From contig JANQSL010000056.1 of NCBI GenBank assembly GCA_028284075.1, positions 4,564-68,563 on the forward strand: a stretch of DNA of 64,000 bases. Direction: 5' to 3'. Below, piece by piece: positions 3,588-44,098 of the stretch. Origin of the DNA: Candidatus Sumerlaeia bacterium. Lineage in GTDB: Bacteria; Sumerlaeota; Sumerlaeia; SLMS01; JAHLLQ01. Each line of letters begins with the position of its first letter. Position 1 is the stretch's first letter. The notes under the pieces are model-generated. The model was not told where the DNA came from, made no database searches, and saw nothing but the letters and a program-made list of their open reading frames with translations. The translations under genes were made by a program, and so were the position numbers.

Positions 3588-4802
3588 ATGCATGAAATTC
3601 TTGTTAACGACAGACGGGTTCTCATTATCAGCATCATGGTGCTCGGACTCGGCGTCTGGCTCACCGGCAGAATTCCAACGCTCAGGAAATTCAATGTTCC
3701 GGCAGCTGTGACCGGCGGTTTGATTTGCAGCGTGGCCATGGCGCTTGTGCGATGGCTGCTCCAGGTCGAAATTGTTTTTTCAGCGGATCTTCGAAACCTG
3801 CTCCTTCTTGTCTTCTTCAGCACGATCGGCCTTTCCGCAAAGGCGAAACTCCTTCTCAATGGCGGAAAAACACTCGTTGTTCTTCTCGTTCTTGCTGTCA
3901 TCTTTCTTTTTGTACAAAACGCCTGTGGTGTATTTGTTGCCGGACTCTTTGGAGTTCACCCGGCTTTCGGTCTGATGGGAGGCAGCGTTTCCTTCGCGGG
4001 CGGACACGGGACTGCAATCAGTTATGGAGATGCTTTCGCCACGAGATTTGACTTGAAAGGAACGATGGAGGTCGGAATCGCCTGTGCAACAATGGGTCTT
4101 GTGGCAGGCGGAATTGTCGGGGGGCCTCTTTCCGAGAGACTGATAAGGATACATCGTCTTGCCGGAGATCGCGGTGCCGTTTCCTATTCTCCGGGAGCGG
4201 AGGACAGCGGGAAAAGCGTTCCCGTTACCATGGATGGTATGATCCTTGCCATCTTTCTGATCACTTTGTGTCTTGGAATCGGCGAGATTTTCGGCTTCTG
4301 GCTGAAGAAGTTTGGCATGACGGTTCCGTCTTTTCTACCGGCCCTCTTCGCGGGAATTCTGATTACCAATGGCATCGATCTCCTCAGGCTTCCCGTGTCC
4401 GATTCACAGGTTAATTCCGTGAGCCTTGTCAGTGACGTCAGTCTTCAGATCTTTCTCTCCATCAGTCTGATGAGCATGCAGCTATGGACAATCGCCAATT
4501 CCCTTCTGCCATTGACAGTTCTGATGCTTCTTCAAACATTCGCGATTACTTTCTTTGCGGCGAGATTGATCTTTCGCATCATGGGGAAGGACTATGACGC
4601 GGCAGTCATTAGTGCCGGATTCGTAGGTCTCGGTCTGGGAGCAACGCCCGTAGCCATCGCCAACATGAATGCGCTGACCAAGAAATATGGTGCTTCGCCC
4701 AAGGCTTTTCTGGTCGTCCCGCTTGTGGGCGCCTTTTTCATCGACATAGTCAACAACGGCATTGTTATCCCGGTCTTTCTTGGGCTGCCGTTCTTTAAGT
4801 AG
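3588..4802 (+). CDS. gltS: Sodium/glutamate symporter GltS
   Basis: A ~400 aa polytopic protein with a GltS-family pattern. The start MHEILVNDRRVLIIS was chosen inside ORF 3549..4802. Confidence 0.8.
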   Translation: MHEILVNDRRVLIISIMVLGLGVWLTGRIPTLRKFNVPAAVTGGLICSVAMALVRWLLQVEIVFSADLRNLLLLVFFSTIGLSAKAKLLLNGGKTLVVLLVLAVIFLFVQNACGVFVAGLFGVHPAFGLMGGSVSFAGGHGTAISYGDAFATRFDLKGTMEVGIACATMGLVAGGIVGGPLSERLIRIHRLAGDRGAVSYSPGAEDSGKSVPVTMDGMILAIFLITLCLGIGEIFGFWLKKFGMTVPSFLPALFAGILITNGIDLLRLPVSDSQVNSVSLVSDVSLQIFLSISLMSMQLWTIANSLLPLTVLMLLQTFAITFFAARLIFRIMGKDYDAAVISAGFVGLGLGATPVAIANMNALTKKYGASPKAFLVVPLVGAFFIDIVNNGIVIPVFLGLPFFK

Positions 4803-5756: not shown

Positions 5757-5931
5757 GAGGAGGACGGGTTGGATTTGTCTGTGAAAGGCGGACTGGAACC
5801 ATCGCGGCAAACGGGAGTTGACTCTGCCAGTTCCATTCCGCTTATATCATTGGCAAATCTGTAACGCCGCAGAAACGGAACCATTGTCTTTATTCCTGTT
5901 CCGTGGAATTCAACTCGCGGAGTTTATCAAA

Positions 5932-6615
5932 ATGCTGAAGCTGCCGTGCGTTTCGAGAGGATGTAGACCGGTGGGCGGGTTCACCTTGGTGGAACTACTG
6001 GTTGTCGTTGGAATTATCGGTATTCTTGCAGCCATTGCCGCTCCAAATTATCAGTCAGCCGTCGTGCGCTCGAAAGTGGCGCGTTTTCATGCAGACGGAA
6101 GAGCGGTCGAGTATGCAGTGGAATCATACAATGCGGAGTTTGGCTCTTATCCCGCTCCCGATCTTTATCCGGTCAACAGCGATTGCGACAACTGGGAAAA
6201 CCACCCTTCGGATCCTTACAGAGGCTATCTGACGCGCCGGCTCACCACCCCAACCACATATCTGTCAAAACTTCCTGTCGACGTTTTTCAGAACCAGACA
6301 GATGAAGGGAGCTGTTTCCCCGAACGCAAACGCCCACCCCTGTTTTCCAATGATCGCTTTAATCGCGACGTCTGGGGTACCGGGAGTCTCCGCGGAAACT
6401 ACACAAGCTGGAGCTGGGAAGCCCTGAAGCTTATAAATGTGTCTTTCGAACAGGGCGATAACCCGGCAGTCTGGATGGTGTTCAGTCCCGGCCCTGATCT
6501 TGACAGAGACACCGACATGACGGAGCCCGTTCATTACGATCCGACGAACGGGACTGTTTCGAGTGGTGATATCTATCGATACGGCCCGGGACTTGGTATC
6601 CCCGAGGACCGCTAG
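5932..6615 (+). CDS. Prepilin-type N-terminal cleavage/methylation domain protein (type II secretion / type IV pseudopilin-like)
   Basis: GFTLVELLVVVGIIGILAAIA is a class III signal peptide with G-1, F+1 and E+5. Start taken at MLKLPCVS inside ORF 5818..6615. Confidence 0.75.
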   Translation: MLKLPCVSRGCRPVGGFTLVELLVVVGIIGILAAIAAPNYQSAVVRSKVARFHADGRAVEYAVESYNAEFGSYPAPDLYPVNSDCDNWENHPSDPYRGYLTRRLTTPTTYLSKLPVDVFQNQTDEGSCFPERKRPPLFSNDRFNRDVWGTGSLRGNYTSWSWEALKLINVSFEQGDNPAVWMVFSPGPDLDRDTDMTEPVHYDPTNGTVSSGDIYRYGPGLGIPEDR

Positions 6616-6632: not shown

Positions 6633-7244
6633 ATGAAACAACTCAGGACGCATGTGATGCTGCTTTCCGTCGGCGGTATTCTCAACATCGCTCTCGGTCT
6701 TGCCATCCTCATCCTTCCACAGTTTCTCGGTCGGCAAACGCTGGCGGGTACAATTGAAACTCTCATGGCGGTGTTTTTGATTTCGACCGGGATCATTCAG
6801 GCCATTCATTTCGCGGCGGGTGGTGACAAGGATCTTCGAAGTTTCGAAATCGTTCATTCGATGGTGACACTGCTGGCCGGTATTACGATTCTTGTCGCGG
6901 CTCCGGACGGCAATCTGACCTGTACAACGATCGTTGCAACTTACTTTGGAATCAGCGCGGCTTTGCTTTTCGGAGCGGCGGTTCGCGTTCGAGGCAAATA
7001 CTACTTTCCTCATATTCTGGCCCATGGACTGTTAGCCGTGGTTCTTTCCGTTATGATCTGGGTCGTTGCCAGCGGCTTTTCCGGCCGGATGATCGCTTCA
7101 CTTATTGCCGTGCATTTTGTGGCTCGCGGAATTGTGAATTTTATGTGCGCCGAACGCGCTTTGATCGAGGCGGCCGAGGTTGCAACGGCTTCCGGTGCCG
7201 CAGCCGCTCCTGCCACGAGTGGGGCTGAGCCGGCAACAGGCTAG
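6633..7244 (+). CDS. HdeD/DUF308 family membrane protein
   Basis: A small protein of repeated hydrophobic helices with the family pattern GILNIALGLAILILPQF. Confidence 0.65.
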   Translation: MKQLRTHVMLLSVGGILNIALGLAILILPQFLGRQTLAGTIETLMAVFLISTGIIQAIHFAAGGDKDLRSFEIVHSMVTLLAGITILVAAPDGNLTCTTIVATYFGISAALLFGAAVRVRGKYYFPHILAHGLLAVVLSVMIWVVASGFSGRMIASLIAVHFVARGIVNFMCAERALIEAAEVATASGAAAAPATSGAEPATG

Positions 7245-14372: not shown

Positions 14373-15941
14373 CTATGGCTTATAGAGATATGAAGAAGCG
14401 ATTGCCGTGAATTCCCGCACTTCGCTCTTAATCCATCCGGAGTCACGGCCGAGTTCACTAGCCATGATTTCACCAACTCGAGGAGCGGCTTCAATCGCTG
14501 CCGCGGCATCAAAGAGAAGGGAACGAGTCCGCCGTGCCAGCATATCGTCCACTGTTCTTGCCATCTCCCGCCTGCAGGCCCACTGCACTTCCGTGCCTGT
14601 CAAAGACAGGCACGGATGAACCGGCTGGCTCATTGTTTTGTCTGCTTCCGCCAGGAGCTCGATCTCCGTTGCATCGGAACCGTAGAAGGCAAACTTTCCG
14701 AATCGTCCCGCGTTACGATGGTAACCATGAATCGGAAGACGTTTAGTCACACATTCACTCGGTTCGAGATCGGCCAGAGTAACAGCTTGATCCACAACAT
14801 CCTCTGCCATTTTCCGATATGTTGTCCATTTTCCGCCGGCGACAGTCATCAGTCCGGAGGCGGGATCGATAAGAATCGTATGGTCCCGTGACAGTGCCGC
14901 TGTATTCTCACCGTCGCCCAACTTTACAAGAGGACGGATGCCTGCAAAAACGCTGCGGACATCTCGTGCTCCTGCGGGTCGCGCAAGATATCGGTTCGCC
15001 GTTTCGAGAATAAACTCCACCTCTTCCTGCAGGGGACGTGGTTCGAGCTCCACTTCGTCCACGGGAGTGTCTGTTGTTCCAACCACCGTGACGTCATGCC
15101 ACGGAATCGCGAACATTACGCGGCCGTCGTCTGTATGCGGAACCATGATTGCCGAGTCACCCGACAGGAACGAACGATCCAGCACAATATGCACACCCTG
15201 GCTGGGTGCAATCATCGGCGAAGCGTCCGGCTTGTCCAGCCTGCGAACATCGTCAGCAAAGGGGCCCGTCGCGTTGACAACCACTTTGCCGGGAATACTT
15301 ATCTCATGGCCCGACTCGAAGTCCTTCGCAACCACTCCTTCCACCAACCCGGCATCGTCTTTCAGGAGTTCTGTGACCGTCGCGTAATTCAAGAGTGTCC
15401 CCCCCTGTTCGAAGGCGGTTGTCGCCAGGTTAATAGCGAGGCGTGCATCGTCAAACTGTCCATCGAAGTAGCGGGTGCCACCAAGAAGACCATCTGTTTT
15501 GATGGATGGAATTTCCTCAACCACACTGTCCCTCGAAACAATGGTCGACTTGCCGAATCCGTAGCGTCCTGCCAGCAGATCGTAAACCTTCAATCCGATA
15601 CCATAGAACGGGGATTCCCACCACACATAGCTCGGTACAATAAAGGCGACGTCTCGGACAAGGTGAGGTGCATTGCGCAGTAACAGGCCTCGCTCCTTCA
15701 GCGCCTCCATGACAAGCGACACATTGCCCTGCTGCAGGTAGCGAACGCCGCCATGGACCAGTTTTGTCGACCGGCTTGATGTGCCTTTGGCAAAATCCGA
15801 TTGTTCAAGCAGAAGCACATCGTAGCCACGGGACGCGGCATCCACTGCCGTCCCAAGTCCCGTCGCACCACCCCCCACAACAATAATGTCCCATGGCTCT
15901 TTGCGATCCGTGATGTTCGAGAGCATGTCATTGCGATTCAT
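14373..15941 (-). CDS. glpD: FAD-dependent glycerol-3-phosphate dehydrogenase (GlpD type)
   Basis: [22 protein letters not shown] dinucleotide-binding fold and ~520 aa length. Lies between glpK and glpF. Confidence 0.9.
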
Positions 15942-21330: not shown

Positions 21331-21753
21331 ATGATTCCCGTCACCGCTGAGTATGCTTTGCGCGCCGTTGTGTTTCTGATACAGAATCAGGATGAGTTCC
21401 ATGCTGCGTCAGCCATGAGTGAGCGAATCAGGGTTCCGGCAAGCTATCTCGTAAAGGTGCTGCAACAATTGACGCGCGCGGGTATCGTGCGCTCGCAGCG
21501 GGGTCCCGGTGGAGGGTATACTCTGGTAAAGAGTGCTGATCAAATTACAATCCACGATGTGTTCGAAGCGGTGGACTCTGTACCGGACCGAATCAAGTCC
21601 TGCCCCCTGGGCCTGAAGGGACACACGGAGCTTTGTGTTCTTCACAGGATGGTGGACAACGCCCTGCTTCAGATGGAAATTGCTTTTCGCACAACGAGCC
21701 TCCGCCAGCTTCTCGACACGGCGGACGAGATGGTTCCCTTGTGCGATCTCTAA
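21331..21753 (+). CDS. Rrf2 family transcriptional regulator (IscR/NsrR-like)
   Basis: N-terminal winged helix-turn-helix with the Rrf2 signature YALRAVVFL...GPGGGY. Cysteines lie in the C-terminal half. Confidence 0.9.
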   Translation: MIPVTAEYALRAVVFLIQNQDEFHAASAMSERIRVPASYLVKVLQQLTRAGIVRSQRGPGGGYTLVKSADQITIHDVFEAVDSVPDRIKSCPLGLKGHTELCVLHRMVDNALLQMEIAFRTTSLRQLLDTADEMVPLCDL

Positions 21754-23009
21754 GTGCCTGGCGGATCGCCGGTCGTGCCGCGGTCCGCCAGGACCGACAC
21801 CGCGATTTTCAGTATTAGTGTGTAAACCATCAAACCAAAAGCCCAGATGCCCACGGTGATCTTCCATTCCGTCACGCTGGGAAGATACTCCACAACTTCG
21901 TGCAACGTGCTCGGGATAAATCCGGGAACGATCAGTCCCATGCCTTTTTCGATCCAGATGCCCGCGAAGGTCATGAGGCAGGCTGCCGTGAGGAACGACC
22001 GGTTTCGGGTTGCCTGTGGAAGGAGAAACATTACCGCCGCGGCCACGTTGAGAAGTACGGCGCTCCAAATCCATGGAACCAGAGAGTTGTGTCCGTGAAG
22101 TCCGAAAAAGAGATAGCGCGCGGAGGCGGTATGAGAGCCGCCGCTGTAGAATTCGGTGAACAGCTCGCACAGCAGCAGGAAAATGTTGAGAAGGCACGTC
22201 ACGCGGATAATATTGAGAAGCGTACGACGAGCTCCCTCTCCGAAGCGGAGCCCGGCAAGTTTTTCAAGAACGTGAAAGGTGATGAGAATAAAGGCGGGAC
22301 CGGAGACAAAGGCCGAAGCGAGAAAGCGGGGTGCAAGCACGGCTGAGTTCCAGAGCGGCCTCCCGCCCAGTCCGCAATAAAGGAACGCCGTTATTGTGTG
22401 AATGGAGATGGCCCACACGATGGAAACGAACACGAAGGGTTTGTACCACGTCGGGTTTGGTTTCTGACGCAGGAACCGGATGTAGAGCAGGTACCCACAG
22501 ATATGCATGTTTAGAAGCAGGTAACCGTTCAGCACGATCACATCCCACGTGAGCATCGAAATGGGAAAGTTGAACCGGCCGATGAAAGGAAACAGGTGCC
22601 AGAAACGATCCGGACGGCCGAGATCAACCGTCACGAACAACAGACACACGATGATAGAGGCGATGGCAAGTAACTCGCCGACGATGGTCATGTCATGCAT
22701 GTCTTCATCGTGATAGAGATAGGCGGGAATGACCATCATGACGCCGCCCGCTGCAAGCCCCACGAAGAACGTGAAATTGGCAATGTACAGACCCCAGGAC
22801 ACGTGATCGGTCATGTTGGTGATCTGCATGCCGTTGGCGACCTGATTGGCCCAGGCATTCGCTCCCACAAGCGCGAGTGCGGTCAACAATGTCATCCATG
22901 CATAGAACAGCGGGCTTCCACTGGTGGCCTGACCGAACGAATGCAGCAGGAATCGCGGATAGCTCGTCACTTTGCGGGTGAAGCCGCCTTCATCGGCGAT
23001 GACGCTCAT
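21750..23009 (-). CDS. NrfD/PsrC-family integral membrane quinol-interacting subunit
   Basis: A ~420 aa polytopic membrane protein with NrfD-family pattern. Last gene of the cytochrome c / FeS / NrfD operon. Start MSVIADEGG. Confidence 0.85.
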   Translation of the reverse strand: MSVIADEGGFTRKVTSYPRFLLHSFGQATSGSPLFYAWMTLLTALALVGANAWANQVANGMQITNMTDHVSWGLYIANFTFFVGLAAGGVMMVIPAYLYHDEDMHDMTIVGELLAIASIIVCLLFVTVDLGRPDRFWHLFPFIGRFNFPISMLTWDVIVLNGYLLLNMHICGYLLYIRFLRQKPNPTWYKPFVFVSIVWAISIHTITAFLYCGLGGRPLWNSAVLAPRFLASAFVSGPAFILITFHVLEKLAGLRFGEGARRTLLNIIRVTCLLNIFLLLCELFTEFYSGGSHTASARYLFFGLHGHNSLVPWIWSAVLLNVAAAVMFLLPQATRNRSFLTAACLMTFAGIWIEKGMGLIVPGFIPSTLHEVVEYLPSVTEWKITVGIWAFGLMVYTLILKIAVSVLADRGTTGDPPGT

Positions 23010-23022
23010 TGTGGACTTTTTC

Positions 23023-23964
23023 CTATTCGTCGAAGAAATAGAAGAACTGAGGTTTGGTGCCAAGTTCCTCCTTCAATACAAAGACGCGCTTGTTTTCAAG
23101 GACCCAGCGAATTTCCGATTCCGGATCCAGAAGGTTGCCAAAGACCCGGGCCCCTGTCGGGCAGGCCTCAAGGCACGCCGGAAGCTTCCCCTTGCGCGTG
23201 CGATGCAGGCAGAACGTGCATTTCTCCATGACCCCTGCCGGCCGAACCCGGTTGCTCAAATATCCCTGATCAGGATTGATATCCTGACTGGGAATCTCCG
23301 GCTTCTTCCAGTTGAAGCGACGCGCATGGTATGGACAGGCTGCCTCACAGTAGCGGCAGCCAATGCACCAGTTGTAGTCAACCACGACGATGCCATCCTG
23401 TTCCTTCCATGTGGCCTCCACAGGGCAGACATGTACACAGGGCGGGTTTTCGCACTGCTGACACTGCACGGGCATGTAGAACTTGTCTTTTTGCGGAACC
23501 GGATGGTTGTAGTTGGCGTCCCCTTTCTCGAAATCGATGCCACCCTTCTCCATTTCAAACACGCGAATGTAGGACTGGTTCGTTTCGCGGTCATGATTGT
23601 TCTCGATATGACACGCCTCCGCGCACTTGCGACAGCCGATACAGATGCTGAGGTTGAGCGCGTACCCGAACTTCACTCCTTCCTTTGGGCGATAGTCGTT
23701 GATGGATACATCGACTCCATGGTCCTCGACGGCTTCCCGCTCCAGGCGTGCAAGGACTGTTTGGAGTTCGCCGGGTTTCAGTTCCTTGTAGTGTTTCTGG
23801 AGGAACTCGTCGACACTCATGTCGCTGGTCCACTCCGTGATGGGAGCGATGGCTTTCGCGAGGGCCGCCATTCCGAGCATCGCGGCACCACCCTTCAGTG
23901 CTGTGCGACGATCGAATCCGATCTTGCCGGAATCATGTTTGGGAGGCTTTGAATCTGTACTCAT
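23023..23964 (-). CDS. TAT-exported 4Fe-4S ferredoxin-type subunit (NrfC/PsrB-like)
   Basis: Twin-arginine motif DRRTALKGG and multiple CxxCxxCxxxCP clusters. Confidence 0.9.
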   Translation of the reverse strand: MSTDSKPPKHDSGKIGFDRRTALKGGAAMLGMAALAKAIAPITEWTSDMSVDEFLQKHYKELKPGELQTVLARLEREAVEDHGVDVSINDYRPKEGVKFGYALNLSICIGCRKCAEACHIENNHDRETNQSYIRVFEMEKGGIDFEKGDANYNHPVPQKDKFYMPVQCQQCENPPCVHVCPVEATWKEQDGIVVVDYNWCIGCRYCEAACPYHARRFNWKKPEIPSQDINPDQGYLSNRVRPAGVMEKCTFCLHRTRKGKLPACLEACPTGARVFGNLLDPESEIRWVLENKRVFVLKEELGTKPQFFYFFDE

Positions 23965-24608
23965 TCGCTATGTCTTTCGTTGTGATCCGAGGCATTTTGG
24001 GAGCGAATACTGATATGGCGATCTCTGGGCGGAGGAGCGGGGTACATCTGTGGAAAAGCCGGGCTGTGGGGATCGTGACACTGCACGCAGCTATTGCGTG
24101 TTCGCGGACCCAGAGTCGTGTCCCAGTATCCCGTCATGCCACCATGCGACCCGTTCTCATAGTCTCTCGCCTGAGGTCCGTGACATTGTGCGCAGAGCTG
24201 CATGGCATTCGCCCAGGGCGTGTGTGTGCCATCCGCGAGGCGGAGCTCTTCATTGTTGCCGGGATCGTGGCAGGACGCGCAAACCAGCTGTCCATGCTCG
24301 AAATTCAGGCCGAGGTGGAAGCTCTCCAGTTCCGCGGCGGATCGGACCGGGACGGCATTCGTTCGCGTTGCGTGGCATGTTGAGCAATCGGCCGTGACAG
24401 GTTCCCCGGATCCCGTCGTGAATCCCGTTTCAATAGCAGGCGAGGGACCCGGGCTGCGTGTATGAACAGGAAACCGCTGGATGGCTTCCTTTGGCTTATT
24501 CGCAGGCTCAGTACTCTGCTGGCTGGTCCCGATCGCTTGGGAGAGTACTCCCGTCAGCAGGCTAAGTGATACAATACCAGTAATCTGAAAAGCCGTCTTG
24601 CGCCTCAT
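23961..24608 (-). CDS. Tetrahaem c-type cytochrome (periplasmic)
   Basis: Signal peptide and four CxxCH motifs: CSTCH, CASCH, CAQCH and CVQCH. Overlaps the FeS gene by 4 nt. Confidence 0.85.
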   Translation of the reverse strand: MRRKTAFQITGIVSLSLLTGVLSQAIGTSQQSTEPANKPKEAIQRFPVHTRSPGPSPAIETGFTTGSGEPVTADCSTCHATRTNAVPVRSAAELESFHLGLNFEHGQLVCASCHDPGNNEELRLADGTHTPWANAMQLCAQCHGPQARDYENGSHGGMTGYWDTTLGPRTRNSCVQCHDPHSPAFPQMYPAPPPRDRHISIRSQNASDHNERHSE

Positions 24609-24670
24609 GAGGGCCTCTCCAGCGAGTTCGCAGATAACGGAAGAAGTGATGCTTCGGATGTATGAGAGAT

Positions 24671-24701
24671 ATCAAGACAAATTTATCCGATTTGTCTTGA
24701 T
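24671..24701. promoter_or_regulatory. Perfect 12-7-12 inverted repeat ATCAAGACAAAT-TTATCCG-ATTTGTCTTGAT in the divergent promoter region
   Basis: Read directly from the sequence. It lies between the cytochrome c operon start (24608, minus) and the napD start (24760, plus). Confidence 0.6.
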
Positions 24702-24759
24702 TCCGAGCGCTACGATCCCTAAATCACTCATCAACACTGTAAATGATGGAAGGTGTACG

Positions 24760-25026
24760 ATGCCTGTCAGCGGCTTGGTACTAACACTTTCGGCGAACGG
24801 GGGAACTGCGGCGGAGGCAATCTCGGCTCTCAAGGCACGTCCCGAAATCGAATGCGAGGCTCCGCGAGGCAACAAACTGCCCGTTGCCGTGGATACATTG
24901 GATCGCACGAAAGATCAGGCGCTTTGGCGTTGGATCAACGAGCTGCCGGGTGTTGATTTCATCGATGTTGTCTTTATCTCGTTTCCTGAAGACGAGGATT
25001 CCCCGGAAGTGGCGGAGGCCTGCTGA
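24760..25026 (+). CDS. napD: NapD chaperone for NapA (TorD-like)
   Basis: ~88 aa NapD-like sequence ending 1 nt into napA (TGATG). RBS GGAAGG. The upstream part of ORF 24598..25026 crosses the operator region and is not coding. Confidence 0.75.
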   Translation: MPVSGLVLTLSANGGTAAEAISALKARPEIECEAPRGNKLPVAVDTLDRTKDQALWRWINELPGVDFIDVVFISFPEDEDSPEVAEAC

Positions 25027-27473
25027 TGAAACGACGGGATTTTCTCAAGCGCAGCGCGATGGCGGCGGCGGTTGCCGCAGCGGGCCCGCTGCCCGGTCAG
25101 ACGACCGTGCCGGAGTATACGGAGTCTGCTGAAGGCGATACCGGGTTGGAGTGGGAAAAAGCACCCTGTCGGTTCTGTGGAACCGGGTGTCATGTCATGG
25201 TTGGTCGAGAGAACGGAAAGGTCCGCGCCATTGCCGGTGACAGGAAAGCTGACGTGAACAAGGGCCTGCTGTGCGTAAAGGGCTATCACGTCGGCATGAT
25301 CCTCTATGGTCAGGATCGTTTACGCTATCCAATGCTGCGGAAGAATGGCGAGATGACCCGGATTTCGTGGGACGAGGCGATCGACGTTATTGCCGATCGG
25401 GTGGAAGCTGATCCCGCGGCTTTTGCCATTTATGGCAGCGGACAATGGACAATTCCCGAAGGCTATGTTGCGCAGAAATTCATGAAAGGCGGTTTGGCAA
25501 ACAACCATATCGATCCCAACGCACGACTCTGCATGGCCTCCGCGGTGACCGGTTTCATCAGTACCTATGGCGTGGACGAACCGGCGGGATGCTATCAGGA
25601 TCTGGATGAGTGCGATGTACTGATTATGTGGGGGAACAATCCGGCGGAAATGCATCCGGTTCTCTTCTCGCGCGTCGTCGACCGGCGTTCCCGCGGCGAG
25701 GAGATCCTGATGATCGATATCGGGACACGCCGCACCCGGACCACCGATCATTGTCAGCACTATCTTGAGTTCAAACCCCATACGGATCTTGCCATCGCCA
25801 ACGGCATCGCTCATCTGCTGATTAAAAACGGAACCTGGGACAAAAAGTTCGTCGAGAATCACTGTAACTTCCGGGCGGACACCGAGAAGCCAACGCTTCT
25901 CGGCAGGGAGATTACGTTCGAAGAATACAAGAAACTGGTCGAGCCGTATACCCCGGAGTACGTCGAGAAAATCTCAGGTGTTCCAGCAGAAAAAATCCGC
26001 CTCCTTGGAGATCTGTTCGGACAGCGCGATATACGGATTTGCAGCCTTTGGTGCATGGGAATGAACCAGCACACACGAGGCACAGCGATTAACAACCTCG
26101 TACACGGCGTTCATCTCTTGAGCGGGCATTTTGGCCGCCCCGGTGATGCTCCGACGAGCCTGACAGGCCAGCCTTCGGCATGCGGAACGGTCCGGGAGGT
26201 CGGAACTCTCGCGCATGCACTTCCCGGGGGACGTGTCGTTGCAAACGCCGAGCACCGGGCGGAGACGGAAAAACTCTGGAATCTTCCGGAGGGCCGCGTG
26301 AATGCCAAACCCGGATATCACACGGTTCTCATGTGGGAGAAATTTTGCACTCCAACGGAGGAAGGCGGAGATATTGGAACGATCTGGGTTCAGGTCACCA
26401 ACCCGGGACAAACTCTTCCCAACCGCCACAAGTTGTTCGAAGCGAAAAGGGATCTGAAAGACAAGTTTCTCATTGTCTCCGAAGTTTATCCGACTGCCTC
26501 GACGGAACTGGCGGACCTGGTTCTCCCCGCAGCGCTTTGGGTCGAAAAAAACGGGGTCTACGGGAATTCGGAACGGCGAACACAACAATGGTTTAAGATG
26601 GTCGAGCCTCCCGGTGAAGCCCGCGACGACTGCTGGCAGACACTCGCCGTTGCGCGACGGCTTTACGAACGAGGCTTTGAGGCAATGAAGGGGAGAGATG
26701 GCCGATTCATTTTCGATATTCGCAACGAAGATGGAAGTGAGATTCCCTATTGGAAATGGGAGCACTACTATGACACGAACGTGGACAAGGCCCTGTTCGA
26801 GGAGTACCGGCAGTTCACACGTTTAAAGCACAAAGACCTCGCACCCTACGATGAGTACGTCAGGGCGCACGGATTACGCTGGCCTGTTGTTCAGCAGCAG
26901 GACGGAACCTGGCGCGAGACGAAGTTCCGGTTTTCGGAGTTCGATGATCCCTATGTTACAAAGGGTGCGGAATTTGAATTCTACCATTCAGTTACAAAGG
27001 ACGGGCGGGCGCTGATATGGTTCCGTCCTTACGAAGAACCTCCGGAGTCTCCTGACGATGAATTCCCAATGTGGCTCTCCACGGGTCGAGTTCTTGAGCA
27101 CTGGCATACCGGCACGATGACCATGCGTGTGCCACAGCTTCGCCGTGCCATGCCCGGCGCGTATGTGGAAATGAATCCAAAGGATGCGGCACGCCAGGGT
27201 ATTGTGAACGGCGAACGCATACTTGTCGAGACGCGCCGCGGCAGCATGGAATTGCCGGTTTGGGTCGAGGGCCGGGGACATCCTCCGGAGGGCACCGTCT
27301 TTATTCCGTTTTTCGATGAGACGCTGCTTGTGAATGATTTGACCCTTGAAGCCTACGATCCTTTCTCGAAACAGCCGGACTTCAAAAAGTGCGCGGTACG
27401 GGTTCGTCGTATACCCAATGAGCCTTATCAGGAAAAGGGTTTGGCTCCGGTGAATGCGAATGCGCCAGGTTGA
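25026..27473 (+). CDS. napA: Periplasmic nitrate reductase catalytic subunit NapA
   Basis: TAT signal RRDFLK, N-terminal CRFCGTGC [4Fe-4S] motif, Mo-ligand region NARLCMASAV, 815 aa. Confidence 0.95.
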   Translation: MKRRDFLKRSAMAAAVAAAGPLPGQTTVPEYTESAEGDTGLEWEKAPCRFCGTGCHVMVGRENGKVRAIAGDRKADVNKGLLCVKGYHVGMILYGQDRLRYPMLRKNGEMTRISWDEAIDVIADRVEADPAAFAIYGSGQWTIPEGYVAQKFMKGGLANNHIDPNARLCMASAVTGFISTYGVDEPAGCYQDLDECDVLIMWGNNPAEMHPVLFSRVVDRRSRGEEILMIDIGTRRTRTTDHCQHYLEFKPHTDLAIANGIAHLLIKNGTWDKKFVENHCNFRADTEKPTLLGREITFEEYKKLVEPYTPEYVEKISGVPAEKIRLLGDLFGQRDIRICSLWCMGMNQHTRGTAINNLVHGVHLLSGHFGRPGDAPTSLTGQPSACGTVREVGTLAHALPGGRVVANAEHRAETEKLWNLPEGRVNAKPGYHTVLMWEKFCTPTEEGGDIGTIWVQVTNPGQTLPNRHKLFEAKRDLKDKFLIVSEVYPTASTELADLVLPAALWVEKNGVYGNSERRTQQWFKMVEPPGEARDDCWQTLAVARRLYERGFEAMKGRDGRFIFDIRNEDGSEIPYWKWEHYYDTNVDKALFEEYRQFTRLKHKDLAPYDEYVRAHGLRWPVVQQQDGTWRETKFRFSEFDDPYVTKGAEFEFYHSVTKDGRALIWFRPYEEPPESPDDEFPMWLSTGRVLEHWHTGTMTMRVPQLRRAMPGAYVEMNPKDAARQGIVNGERILVETRRGSMELPVWVEGRGHPPEGTVFIPFFDETLLVNDLTLEAYDPFSKQPDFKKCAVRVRRIPNEPYQEKGLAPVNANAPG

Positions 27474-28275
27474 AACTTTTTCAGACCGAACGAAGGGTAG
27501 CCGCCTTGTATTCATCGGCGTTGCGTGTGTGCTTGCGGCGTCGCTGGTGGGGTATCTTGTTGGTTTGTCGCAGGAACCATACGTTACCGCACTTCCACGC
27601 ACGACAACGTCCTACGCTCCGTCCACTGTGATGTCGGCTGTCTCTTACAGTGATATGGATGTTATGTCTGCGGGACCGAACGCCGGTTGGAAGTCCGCCA
27701 CTGTTGCGGAGCTTGCAGGGGACTCGCCTCCGCCCCCCGTCTACGAGGATCAGGAGCAACTGCTGGCCTTGAAGAAGGCATCGCTCGCGGAGCGTGCGGA
27801 AAATCGGGCATTCAACGGTGCACCTCCCCTGGTTCCTCACCCCATCGACGGCTTGATGCTTGAATCGTGCATGGCATGCCATGGCGAAGGACTCGCTCTT
27901 GGCGAAGTGCGGGCTCCACGGATGAGCCATGAATACTACACCAACTGCGTTCAGTGCCACGCGCCTCTCGGCCAGCCTTTTCAGGAGGTGGGTTTGGACA
28001 CTCCGAGTGTTTTTGTGGGATTGCGGGCGCCGCTTGAGGGAGCAAGAGCCTGGGAGGGAGCGCCGCCAATCATTCCCCATGCCACATACATGCGAAACGA
28101 TTGCATGAGTTGTCATGGCCCCGCGGGTGCACCGGGTCTTCGCACGAGCCATCCGGAACGGCATAATTGCCAGCAGTGTCATGCACCTTCCGCGGAACTT
28201 GACCAGGCGTCCATCGGCGACTTTGACGAAAGCGGATTCATGAGCATATTCGACTCGCGGAACGCCGGAAATTGA
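27454..28275 (+). CDS. napB: Tetrahaem cytochrome made of two tandem NapB-like dihaem modules
   Basis: Two repeats of the NapB pattern: GAPPLVPH...CMACHG...CVQCHA, then GAPPIIPH...CMSCHG...CQQCHA. N-terminal signal anchor. Overlaps the napA 3' end. Confidence 0.8.
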   Translation: MRMRQVETFSDRTKGSRLVFIGVACVLAASLVGYLVGLSQEPYVTALPRTTTSYAPSTVMSAVSYSDMDVMSAGPNAGWKSATVAELAGDSPPPPVYEDQEQLLALKKASLAERAENRAFNGAPPLVPHPIDGLMLESCMACHGEGLALGEVRAPRMSHEYYTNCVQCHAPLGQPFQEVGLDTPSVFVGLRAPLEGARAWEGAPPIIPHATYMRNDCMSCHGPAGAPGLRTSHPERHNCQQCHAPSAELDQASIGDFDESGFMSIFDSRNAGN

Positions 28276-28823
28276 GTTCCGCGCGCACGATCTCGCGTCG
28301 AGGATTTGTAAAGCTCGGATTCCTCCGAACGGAAGCGTCACCGGAGCCTCAGGGTTCCAGGCGGCGGATTCCGGTTCACAGACCTCCGGGTGCTGTCAGC
28401 GAAGCGGAATTTCTTTCGGGCTGCACGAAGTGCGAGAAATGCATGGATGCGTGCCCACACGATGCCATCGTTCACGCTCCGATTCGATTCCGTGAAGCGG
28501 CGGGAACCCCCACAATCGATCCATCGAATTCTCCCTGCCGAATGTGTACCGACGCACCCTGCATTCCTGTCTGCCCCGAAGGTGTTCTGCTGCACGACCG
28601 TGGAATGAAAATGGGTGAAGCCCGAATTAATATCCTGAACTGCCTCGCGCATCAGGGAACGTTCTGTTCGACCTGTGTGGAGCAATGCCCTGTCGATGGC
28701 GCCATGAGGCTCGAAGACGGAAAACCGATCATTAACTCAACCGCCTGCACGGGATGCGGTGTGTGTCAGTACATGTGTCCCGCACCTGTGAATCCGCTGA
28801 TGATTCTTGCTCGCCAAACCTGA
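28272..28823 (+). CDS. NapG/NapF-type polyferredoxin (four 4Fe-4S motifs)
   Basis: RRGFVK twin-arginine-like N-terminus and four Cys clusters (CTKCEKCMDACP, CRMCTDAPCIPVCP, C..CSTCVEQCP, CTGCGVCQYMCP). Confidence 0.8.
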   Translation: MSSARTISRRGFVKLGFLRTEASPEPQGSRRRIPVHRPPGAVSEAEFLSGCTKCEKCMDACPHDAIVHAPIRFREAAGTPTIDPSNSPCRMCTDAPCIPVCPEGVLLHDRGMKMGEARINILNCLAHQGTFCSTCVEQCPVDGAMRLEDGKPIINSTACTGCGVCQYMCPAPVNPLMILARQT

Positions 28824-44030: not shown

Positions 44031-44062
44031 ATACCTTCCGGATCGCTCGCTCATGAAATTTG

Positions 44063-44089
44063 CCCCGGTTGAAGAACCGGGGTTTTTTT
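44063..44089 (+). terminator. Rho-independent terminator of the atp operon (CCCCGGTT-GAAG-AACCGGGG followed by TTTTTTT)
   Basis: A perfect 8 bp GC-rich stem with a 4 nt loop and a 7-T tract, 33 nt after the atpC stop. It may also terminate the convergent GT2 gene. Confidence 0.8.
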
Positions 44090-44098
44090 GATGTCCAT

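Follow-up and report, generated by a model that had tools for sequence, protein, structure and literature searches.

Much is known about how Proteobacteria control nitrate respiration, with FNR, NarXL/QP, and NsrR as the familiar regulators. Planctomycetota and Verrucomicrobiota, which occur in abundance in soils and waters, carry a nap arrangement without NapC in which a cytochrome c-NrfCD module is present. In the literature searched, we found no description of the regulation of nitrate respiration in Planctomycetota or Verrucomicrobiota, nor of an Rrf2 regulator associated with nap or NrfD in the Planctomycetes-Verrucomicrobia-Chlamydiae (PVC) group. Here we analyze a 31-bp palindrome at positions 24671 to 24701 of a 64-kb stretch of DNA from a Candidatus Sumerlaeia bacterium (contig JANQSL010000056.1; the whole stretch is called the window below), which lies between a napDAB-F operon and a divergently transcribed quinol dehydrogenase module.

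The described sites with which this palindrome is best compared are those of Rrf2-family regulators, and there is precedent for such a protein at these genes: in Escherichia coli, nap and nrf are under the control of NsrR (PMC8139620). Full Rrf2 sites characteristically take the form of an 11-3-11 inverted repeat (PMC5015018). In the DNA complexes of NsrR, IscR, and RsrR, the central 7 bp receive no base-specific contacts; the Rrf2 recognition helix reads approximately positions ±4 to ±8, and minor-groove readout by the wings falls at approximately ±9 to ±11 (PMC9338935). The window site is of odd length, with an asymmetric 7-bp center and symmetry that begins at exactly ±4. Its 12-7-12 arrangement has the geometry expected of an Rrf2 operator, that is, a dyad of ∼23 to 31 bp with an uncontacted core of ∼7 bp, and, as is also expected of such operators, the target promoter has an Rrf2 gene linked to it in the genome. 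We consider the palindrome very probably a transcription factor site, and its binder probably an Rrf2-family protein. Our preferred reading, to which we assign a probability of roughly 0.55, is that the Rrf2 protein encoded nearby (positions 21331 to 21753), a member of the second of two clades described below, would bind the palindrome and repress both promoters in response to nitric oxide (NO) or redox state.

A perfect palindrome in the napD/cytochrome c gap

Positions 24671 to 24701 read ATCAAGACAAAT-TTATCCG-ATTTGTCTTGAT, a 12-7-12 inverted repeat in which 24/24 arm positions are complementary, exactly as had been claimed in a prior reading of the DNA from its letters alone (the sequence-only reading). 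The left arm (24671 to 24682) and the right arm (24690 to 24701) are the proposed half-operators, the left one resembling the half-site wTCAAGAAtAAA conserved in related loci (see below). Between them lies the asymmetric 7-bp center, TTATCCG (24683 to 24689), with the dyad center at T24686; in abbreviated form, with shorter arms, the palindrome can be written ATCAAGAC-N15-GTCTTGAT. It cannot be extended in either direction, because T24670 and T24702 on the outside and T24683 and G24689 in the center are unpaired. The dyad center is 74 and 78 bp from the flanking start codons, in the near-exact middle of a gap of 151 bp. According to the Pfam gene map, this gap separates napDAB-F on the plus strand from a tetraheme cytochrome c/NrfC/NrfD module on the minus strand, which agrees with the earlier placement of the palindrome in a divergent nap/quinol-module promoter region.

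The repeat is also non-random, as had been argued. Against a background of 300 first-order Markov (Markov-1) randomizations of the window, 0.12 perfect inverted repeats with 12-nucleotide arms and a spacer of 0 to 20 are expected per 64 kb, and one or more appeared in 9% of randomized windows; when the expectation is restricted to the 151-bp intergenic gap, it falls to ∼3e-4. The window holds two perfect repeats of this type, the one at 24671 to 24701 and another at 14590 to 14616 within a coding region. The second, TCCGTGCCTGTC-N3-GACAGGCACGGA, sits in the 3′ part of a glycerol-3-phosphate dehydrogenase-like open reading frame (ORF; 14373 to 15941, minus strand), upstream of a GlpF-like gene.

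Half-sites with ≤2 mismatches are at chance level in the window (6 observed versus 6.2 expected), no second copy of the palindrome exists in the 64 kb, and the runner-up full-length match reaches only 17/24; thus, the palindrome is single copy and not a dispersed repeat. Copies scattered within coding regions, which the sequence-only reading had named as the sign of a repeat element, were not seen within the window. The identical 31 bp are present on an independent Logan assembly contig (L001; L numbers here denote the loci and contigs used for comparison), so the palindrome is not an assembly artifact.

Could the symmetry instead belong to a structural or mobile element, such as a leader RNA hairpin, a terminator, a cruciform, or a repeat of the repetitive extragenic palindrome (REP) or miniature inverted-repeat transposable element (MITE) kind? 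As RNA, the sequence would form a 13-bp hairpin (−14.4 kcal/mol, z = −3.8). However, its location between two divergent start codons leaves nothing to terminate, no T-run follows the palindrome and no terminator-like site was found there, no Rfam match rose above noise, and, as noted, the element is single copy in the window. In related loci the arms lie upstream of the inferred start sites, and it is their sequence that is conserved (near-invariant TCAAGA/TCTTGA), not a pairing kept up by compensatory changes, which argues for a DNA site and not a stem. A metagenome scan for TCAAGACAA-N10-12-TTGTCTTGA returned at least 120 matches, evenly spread over the three spacings (39/40/42) and in unrelated contexts, which also speaks against a mobile element; none of the matches listed was at a nap locus. 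We judge an element of this kind highly improbable.

A recurrent metagenome family, ATCAAGACAAAT-TGTATACA-ATTTGTCTTGAT, has arms identical to those of the window and was considered as a possible relative. It lies within the queF coding sequence (..YQDKLYTICLE..), and the identity of the arms is therefore a coincidence. This queF palindrome was found at positions 4137 to 4166 of L114 and on nine further metagenome contigs (L105, L118, L122, L146, L155, L161, L195, L207, and L208; ..NQYQDKLYTICLEIP..). Conservation of the protein accounts for that of the palindrome, and the example cautions that a long, perfect palindrome may arise by coincidence in coding DNA.

A related palindrome is conserved at nap loci

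For comparison, we used the best 80 syntenic nap/cytochrome c-nrfCD loci from GTDB species genomes, mainly of Verrucomicrobiota and Planctomycetota, with some of Myxococcota and Methylomirabilota; nap adjoins the cytochrome c-nrfC-nrfD module in nearly all 80. A scan for resemblance to the window palindrome yielded AT-rich palindromes of 30 bp upstream of the cytochrome c gene in these relatives, for example, ATCAAGAATAAAAGAATGATTATTCTTGAT and TTCAAGAATTAAAGGCCTTTAATTCTTGAT. The pattern TCAAGA-N16-TCTTGA (≤1 mismatch) is present in 20 of the 80 loci, always 56 to 210 bp upstream of the cytochrome c start, and lengthens to the consensus TCAAGAAtAAA-N4-TTTaTTCTTGA. In shuffled controls, the hexamer pair gave ∼5 matches per Mb over five spacings combined. 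The intergenic DNA around the motif is almost unconserved between loci, with the exception of a short signal ∼17 bp outside each arm, the presumed −10 element; conservation of the motif amid unconserved flanks amounts, as a phylogenetic footprint, to evidence that the DNA site is functional. The motif of the PVC nap loci was not found in the literature searched. If our interpretation is correct, TCAAGAAtAAA-N4-TTTaTTCTTGA could serve as a cross-phylum motif for regulon annotation.

Both terminal hexamers, TCAAGA and TCTTGA, are present in the napD/cytochrome c gap of the window. The proposal that the palindrome is a dimeric transcription factor operator for both operons is supported by the related palindrome at the same position, over both −35 boxes, in ∼20 distantly related nap loci; likewise, the absence of conservation in relatives that would have spoken against it did not materialize, since the element is conserved in related genomes as a motif class. 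The closest cytochrome c relative is only 58% identical to that of the window. Three of the relatives at 52 to 57% identity (L212, L214, and L215) have a different, GC-rich palindrome or none, and the closest cytochrome c relatives have no Rrf2 gene after nrfD and lack the palindrome.

The GC-rich palindrome occupies the same gap at positions 1440 to 1475 of L212 and 1000 to 1040 of L214 (TTATTGCCG..CGGCAAGAAA), with its AT-rich parts outermost; both loci are Verrucomicrobiota-like, have a MOSC gene, and have no Rrf2 gene after nrfD. Part of the asymmetric center is also found elsewhere: TATCC following CAAGAyAAA (window positions 24684 to 24688) recurs in the nap/cytochrome c gap of four unrelated lineages (L015 at ∼6882, L029 at ∼6845, L033, L047, and L060), with its orientation relative to the genes reversed in the window.

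The arms overlap predicted −35 boxes

In the relatives, TAnnnT occurs 16 to 18 bp (mostly 17) downstream of TTGAwT at 14 of 20 sites on each side, compared to a background of 1.1% at random positions. The TTGAwT arm ends and this spacing indicate two back-to-back σ70-type promoters whose −35 boxes are both covered by the palindrome; judged by these sequence features, the palindrome arms of the relatives are the −35 boxes themselves. By analogy, the arm ends TTGATT and TTGATA in the window are putative −35 boxes. On the nap side, the putative −35 TTGATT (24697 to 24702, plus strand) overlaps the right arm and is followed after 17 bp by a putative −10, TAAATC (24720 to 24725, plus strand), which is weak because the final T is missing. 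On the other side, the putative −35 of the cytochrome c/NrfCD module, TTGATA (24670 to 24675, minus strand), overlaps the left arm. The sequence 17 bp downstream of it, GCATCA, is a poor −10, which makes the cytochrome c-side promoter the least certain part of our interpretation.

The sequence tcTTGAca is the classical extended −35 consensus, and the A/T-rich interior of the palindrome resembles UP elements. It is conceivable, then, that there is no dedicated regulator and that the symmetry arises from two facing σ70 promoters with extended −35 boxes (tcTTGAwt) and shared AT-rich, UP-like elements; most related loci do have −35 hexamers with −10-like boxes at 17 bp. We find this decidedly unlikely. 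The N16 distance is fixed in 20 loci of different orders, although promoters do not need it; the arrangement is missing from 43 of 46 loci without a linked clade 1 Rrf2 gene (see below), although these loci still need promoters; and the symmetry in the window is perfect for 4 to 5 positions past the extended −35 and breaks sharply at the 7-bp center. The fixed distance between the hexamers, together with the absence of the arrangement from most loci that lack the regulator, makes promoters alone an insufficient explanation.

The TTGAT pentamers at the arm ends could also be read as FNR/CRP-type boxes that extend outward (TTGAT-N4-ATCAA), with activation by an oxygen-sensing, FNR-like protein. 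The sequence TTGATATCTCTCAT (24662 to 24675, minus strand) fits TTGAT-N4-ATCAA with two mismatches, and the other side fits with three; however, given the TTGAT already present in the arm, a match this good has a probability of ∼0.1 per side, which is chance level. Moreover, the outward halves are unconserved in related loci, where the symmetry that is conserved relates one arm to the other, and the arm pentamers are everted and 21 bp apart, which an FNR dimer cannot span. An FNR-type site is thus very unlikely here. Consensus scans of the gap for FNR, CRP (TGTGA-N6-TCACA), NarL, NsrR, and IscR (type 1) gave nothing beyond chance. The NarL/NarP 7-2-7 pattern TACYYMT-N2-AKRRGTA had no match with up to 4 mismatches at positions 24600 to 24770, and the NsrR 11-1-11 consensus had none in the gap even at 8 mismatches; these scans bear out the earlier statement that the palindrome matches none of FNR, NarL 7-2-7, and NsrR 11-1-11.

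Two Rrf2 clades at nap loci

Using a hidden Markov model built from the window regulator, with length limits and domain coordinates, we detected Rrf2 genes in 32 related loci; when the gene of the window is included, the set divides into two clades. Clade 1 is IscR-like, with the pattern CPFGx3CGx4CPLH (Cys3His), and its genes immediately follow nrfD in the same orientation. Clade 2 is marked by the pattern CPLGLxxHxxLCPLH and by conservation of a C-terminal PLC and of Glu at position 7; its genes are placed around the nap locus in five or more different ways, and the window protein belongs to it. Both clades fall short of the NCBIfam equivalog scores for NsrR, IscR, RirA, CymR, and HypR, and the window Rrf2 matches the NCBIfam superfamily model only (NsrR model NF008240, 48.3 bits versus a cutoff of 182).

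The N16 motif is present in 17 of 21 clade 1 loci but in only 3 of the 46 others (Fisher p = 1.6e-9). Opitutales, Phycisphaerae, Gemmatales, and Pirellulales are all represented among the clade 1 loci; within an order, the presence of the motif tracks the presence of the Rrf2 gene, and where the recognition helix of clade 1 members diverges (LQRPF..), so do their sites. This co-occurrence, and the covariation of helix and site, tie the conserved motif to the linked Rrf2 protein. A motif-agnostic test, in which the strength of palindromes upstream of cytochrome c was compared between loci with and without Rrf2, showed no difference (p = 0.3 to 0.8). GC-rich hairpins, which abound in the remaining loci, account for this result, and the motif-specific test alone carries information. 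Like the window palindrome, clade 1 sites have a non-symmetric center (AAAGAnC, GATC, or TACC).

The clade 2 protein of the window is 140 amino acids long (21331 to 21753, plus strand; Pfam Rrf2, 4e-28), and its gene is convergent with nrfD. It retains the Lx3Gx6Gx2GGx2L motif of the wing and, with it, the Arg that precedes the first wing Gly; its recognition helix, PASYLVK, resembles SPSYLAK of RsrR; and its cysteines form the pattern C-X10-C plus a C-terminal Cys. Its nearest homologs (50 to 54% identity) adjoin the flavohemoglobin gene (hmp), or qNor with nnrS and hemerythrins, or a cupin gene with a heme-copper oxidase-like gene; this neighborhood is a classic NO stress regulon. Its closest relative linked to nap, in L029, is 50% identical, and there a degenerate dyad, CwAGAT-N14-ATCTwG, lies in the equivalent position over a TTGTAT-N17-TATGCT promoter. 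In another clade 2 locus, L015, the left half-site reads TTCAAGACAAGG.

Where the Rrf2 gene is divergent from hmp, qNor, or the cupin/heme-copper oxidase-like gene, a 9-6-9 palindrome, ATTCTRCAC-N6-GTGYAGAAT, is present, sometimes twice (L088, 6919 to 6982; L089, ∼6910 to 6985; L090, ∼6940 to 6975). We regard it as a candidate NO regulon operator of this Rrf2 clade in Planctomycetota. A small cupin gene of the AraC_binding/Cupin_2 type is inserted between nrfC and nrfD in L003 (7634 to 7975), and a similar cupin gene is divergent from the clade 2 Rrf2 gene in L088 (6495 to 6878). The nap-linked clade 2 genes of Pirellulales have a palindrome of their own, TGTAGAC-N6-GTCTACA, just upstream of Rrf2 in the divergent gap (L071, ∼6105 to 6125; L076, ∼5915 to 5935; also upstream of rrf2 in L086, L043, and L040). 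In that order, rrf2 heads an rrf2-cytochrome c-nrfCD operon that is divergent from napD. The attachment of clade 2 to nap loci and its own palindrome in Pirellulales indicate that the combination of a local Rrf2 protein and a palindrome at this promoter arose more than once.

Proposed mechanism and its competitors

In the mechanism that we favor, the palindrome would be the operator of a homodimeric, winged-helix, Fe-S repressor of the Rrf2 family, likeliest the one encoded at 21331 to 21753. Each 12-bp arm would be one half-site, and the asymmetric 7-bp center would be the uncontacted core. The outer arm ends TTGATT and TTGATA would double as the −35 boxes of the back-to-back promoters; because the arms then hold both −35 boxes, a single bound dimer could block RNA polymerase at both promoters. 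Repression would silence napDAB-F and the quinol dehydrogenase (cytochrome c-NrfC-NrfD) at the same time, and loss or modification of the cluster by NO or by a redox change would release the protein from the DNA and turn both operons on. If this interpretation is correct, the palindrome is a readily testable operator, and the linked Rrf2 proteins are candidate Fe-S sensors that would determine when nitrate is reduced in these bacteria.

Several observations weigh against the assignment to the adjacent protein. The conserved N16 motif is statistically tied to clade 1, whereas the window Rrf2 belongs to clade 2, and no other Rrf2 protein, of clade 1 or otherwise, is encoded in the 64-kb window; three loci (L055, L081, and L082) have the motif with no Rrf2 gene within 7 kb. 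The palindrome is unlike the known or inferred clade 2 operators, ATTCTRCAC-N6-GTGYAGAAT and TGTAGAC-N6-GTCTACA, neither of which occurs in the window, and the region upstream of the window's Rrf2 gene has no copy of the palindrome. Among nap/cytochrome c gaps, the spacing between the hexamers is N16 in 20 and N17 in the window only; half-site positions 6 to 8 are GAC in the window and GAA in relatives, and the window half-sites score 12 to 13 bits compared with 13 to 21 for the relatives. The window's −10 candidates, TAAATC and GCATCA, do not fit TAnnnT and are weaker than those of the relatives. The recognition helix reads PASYLVK in the window versus PRRYAHK or PHEYLLK in relatives; to judge from these residues, the difference allows a different specificity without demonstrating one. 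Finally, the database held no relatives above 58% identity in cytochrome c or 54% in Rrf2 that could show conservation of the exact site. Given the clade mismatch and the 1-bp difference in spacing, we infer, and do not observe, binding by the adjacent Rrf2, and the same holds for the identity of the binder, repression, and the sensed signal (NO or redox) in the window. The suggestion in the sequence-only reading that the adjacent Rrf2 might own the site is thus borne out in part: the motif does co-occur with a linked Rrf2 gene, but the one in the window is of the other clade, and the spacing is off by 1 bp.

Some of these points would be accommodated if the palindrome is the operator of a regulator encoded elsewhere, either a clade 1-type Rrf2 or an unrelated factor, and the adjacent clade 2 Rrf2 instead controls NO detoxification. 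The palindrome is like the clade 1 motif in its ends, its AT-rich interior, and its putative −35 position, and unlike the clade 2 operators; the three loci that carry the motif without a linked Rrf2 gene, and the linkage of clade 2 relatives to hmp and norB, point the same way. On the other hand, there is no clade 1 Rrf2 in the window, clade 2 Rrf2 genes are attached to the nap locus in many lineages, and the 1-bp spacing difference and the GAC in place of GAA separate the palindrome from the clade 1 motif as well. We consider a regulator encoded elsewhere rather doubtful and retain the adjacent clade 2 protein as the preferred binder.

A broader interpretation, possible and offered tentatively, is that two unrelated, uncharacterized Rrf2 subfamilies were independently recruited in Planctomycetota and Verrucomicrobiota to one back-to-back promoter pair, which controls both periplasmic nitrate reductase and an NrfCD-type quinol dehydrogenase, and that the window's member reads a one-base-wider version of the other's operator. 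One subfamily would be the IscR-like Cys3His proteins, and the other those with Cys-X10-Cys and a C-terminal Cys, related to RsrR and to the NO sensors linked to hmp and norB. If true, operator capture would have occurred naturally here between paralogous Fe-S sensors.

Genes on either side of the palindrome

The nap operon begins with a gene for a napD-like chaperone of 88 amino acids (24760 to 25026, plus strand), identified by its position and by tblastn matches in 60+ loci; it has no Pfam match, and the gene call is present in L001. It is followed on the plus strand by napA, encoding the catalytic subunit of the periplasmic nitrate reductase (25026 to 27473; Pfam Molybdop_Fe4S4, Molybdopterin, and Molydop_binding), by a gene for a NapB-like cytochrome c with four CXXCH motifs (27454 to 28275; Pfam NapB), and by a gene for a NapF/NapG-like 4Fe-4S ferredoxin (28272 to 28823; Pfam Fer4 families). 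At 273 amino acids and with four CXXCH motifs, the NapB-like protein is ∼2 times the size of classical diheme NapB; this long form is common to nearly all 80 related loci. These loci also have no napC, and the cytochrome c-NrfC-NrfD module is used in its place.

In the window, this module is encoded on the minus strand, beginning with the tetraheme cytochrome c gene (23961 to 24608; Pfam Paired_CXXCH_1; 442 homologs), followed by genes for an NrfC-like 4Fe-4S subunit (23023 to 23964; Pfam Fer4_11 and related families) and an NrfD-like, quinol-oxidizing membrane subunit (21750 to 23063; Pfam NrfD). A mechanical ORF list includes a 142-amino-acid ORF with a TTG start (24598 to 25026; ..YQDKFIRFVLI..) that crosses the palindrome; it is an overextended napD, which in fact starts with the ATG at 24760, in agreement with the gene call in L001. 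Elsewhere in the window, at positions 44052 to 44093, a GC-rich stem followed by TTTTTTT (..GCCCCGGTT-N4-AACCGGGGTTTTTTT) resembles an intrinsic terminator.

Comparison with known Rrf2 systems

The nearest counterpart of the window site is the PVC nap motif TCAAGA-N16-TCTTGA, with which it shares its napD/cytochrome c location, terminal hexamers, AT-rich interior, and linkage to Rrf2, as well as overlap with −35 boxes that are putative in the window. It differs in its N17 spacing, its GAC, and its perfect symmetry, and in that the window Rrf2 is of clade 2 and convergent after nrfD, whereas the Rrf2 gene at the motif loci is of clade 1 and cotranscribed after nrfD.

NsrR operators, both the E. 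coli 11-1-11 consensus (AAxATGCATTT-N-AAATGCATxTT) and the 23-bp hmpA1 site of Streptomyces coelicolor, are likewise dyad symmetric and located at promoters of nitrogen oxide genes, with AAGA..TCTT-like outer ends, an interior rich in A/T, and a 7-bp center that is not contacted. However, the window site matches 12/20 positions of the NsrR operator, and in the 11-3-11 frame only, and the cysteine pattern of NsrR is C-X5/6-C-X5-C, in contrast to C-X10-C plus a C-terminal Cys in the window Rrf2. By its sequence, then, the window site is not a canonical NsrR box.

The closest solved structure to the window Rrf2 is RsrR of Streptomyces venezuelae (6HSD/6Y45, E = 3e-11). Its recognition helix is similar (SYLAK versus SYLVK in the window), its operator is also of odd length in an 11-3-11 frame, and its class 1 operators are also found at a divergent promoter (PMC5015018). 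RsrR differs in that it is an actinomycete protein that responds to redox state by means of a [2Fe-2S] cluster ligated by Cys/Glu/His and has NAD(P)H and glutamine genes as targets.

In Vibrio vulnificus, a single Rrf2 operator in the short divergent gap between nsrR and hmpA represses both units, much as we propose for the window, but there the site is centered at +8.5 of hmpA and the regulator is one of the two genes (PMC8175989). The window site instead lies over two putative −35 boxes, and its candidate regulator is 3 kb away with its own promoter. An Rrf2 repressor positioned over −35 boxes is a conventional mechanism, and the window palindrome is an ordinary type of regulatory site in a little-studied bacterial group.

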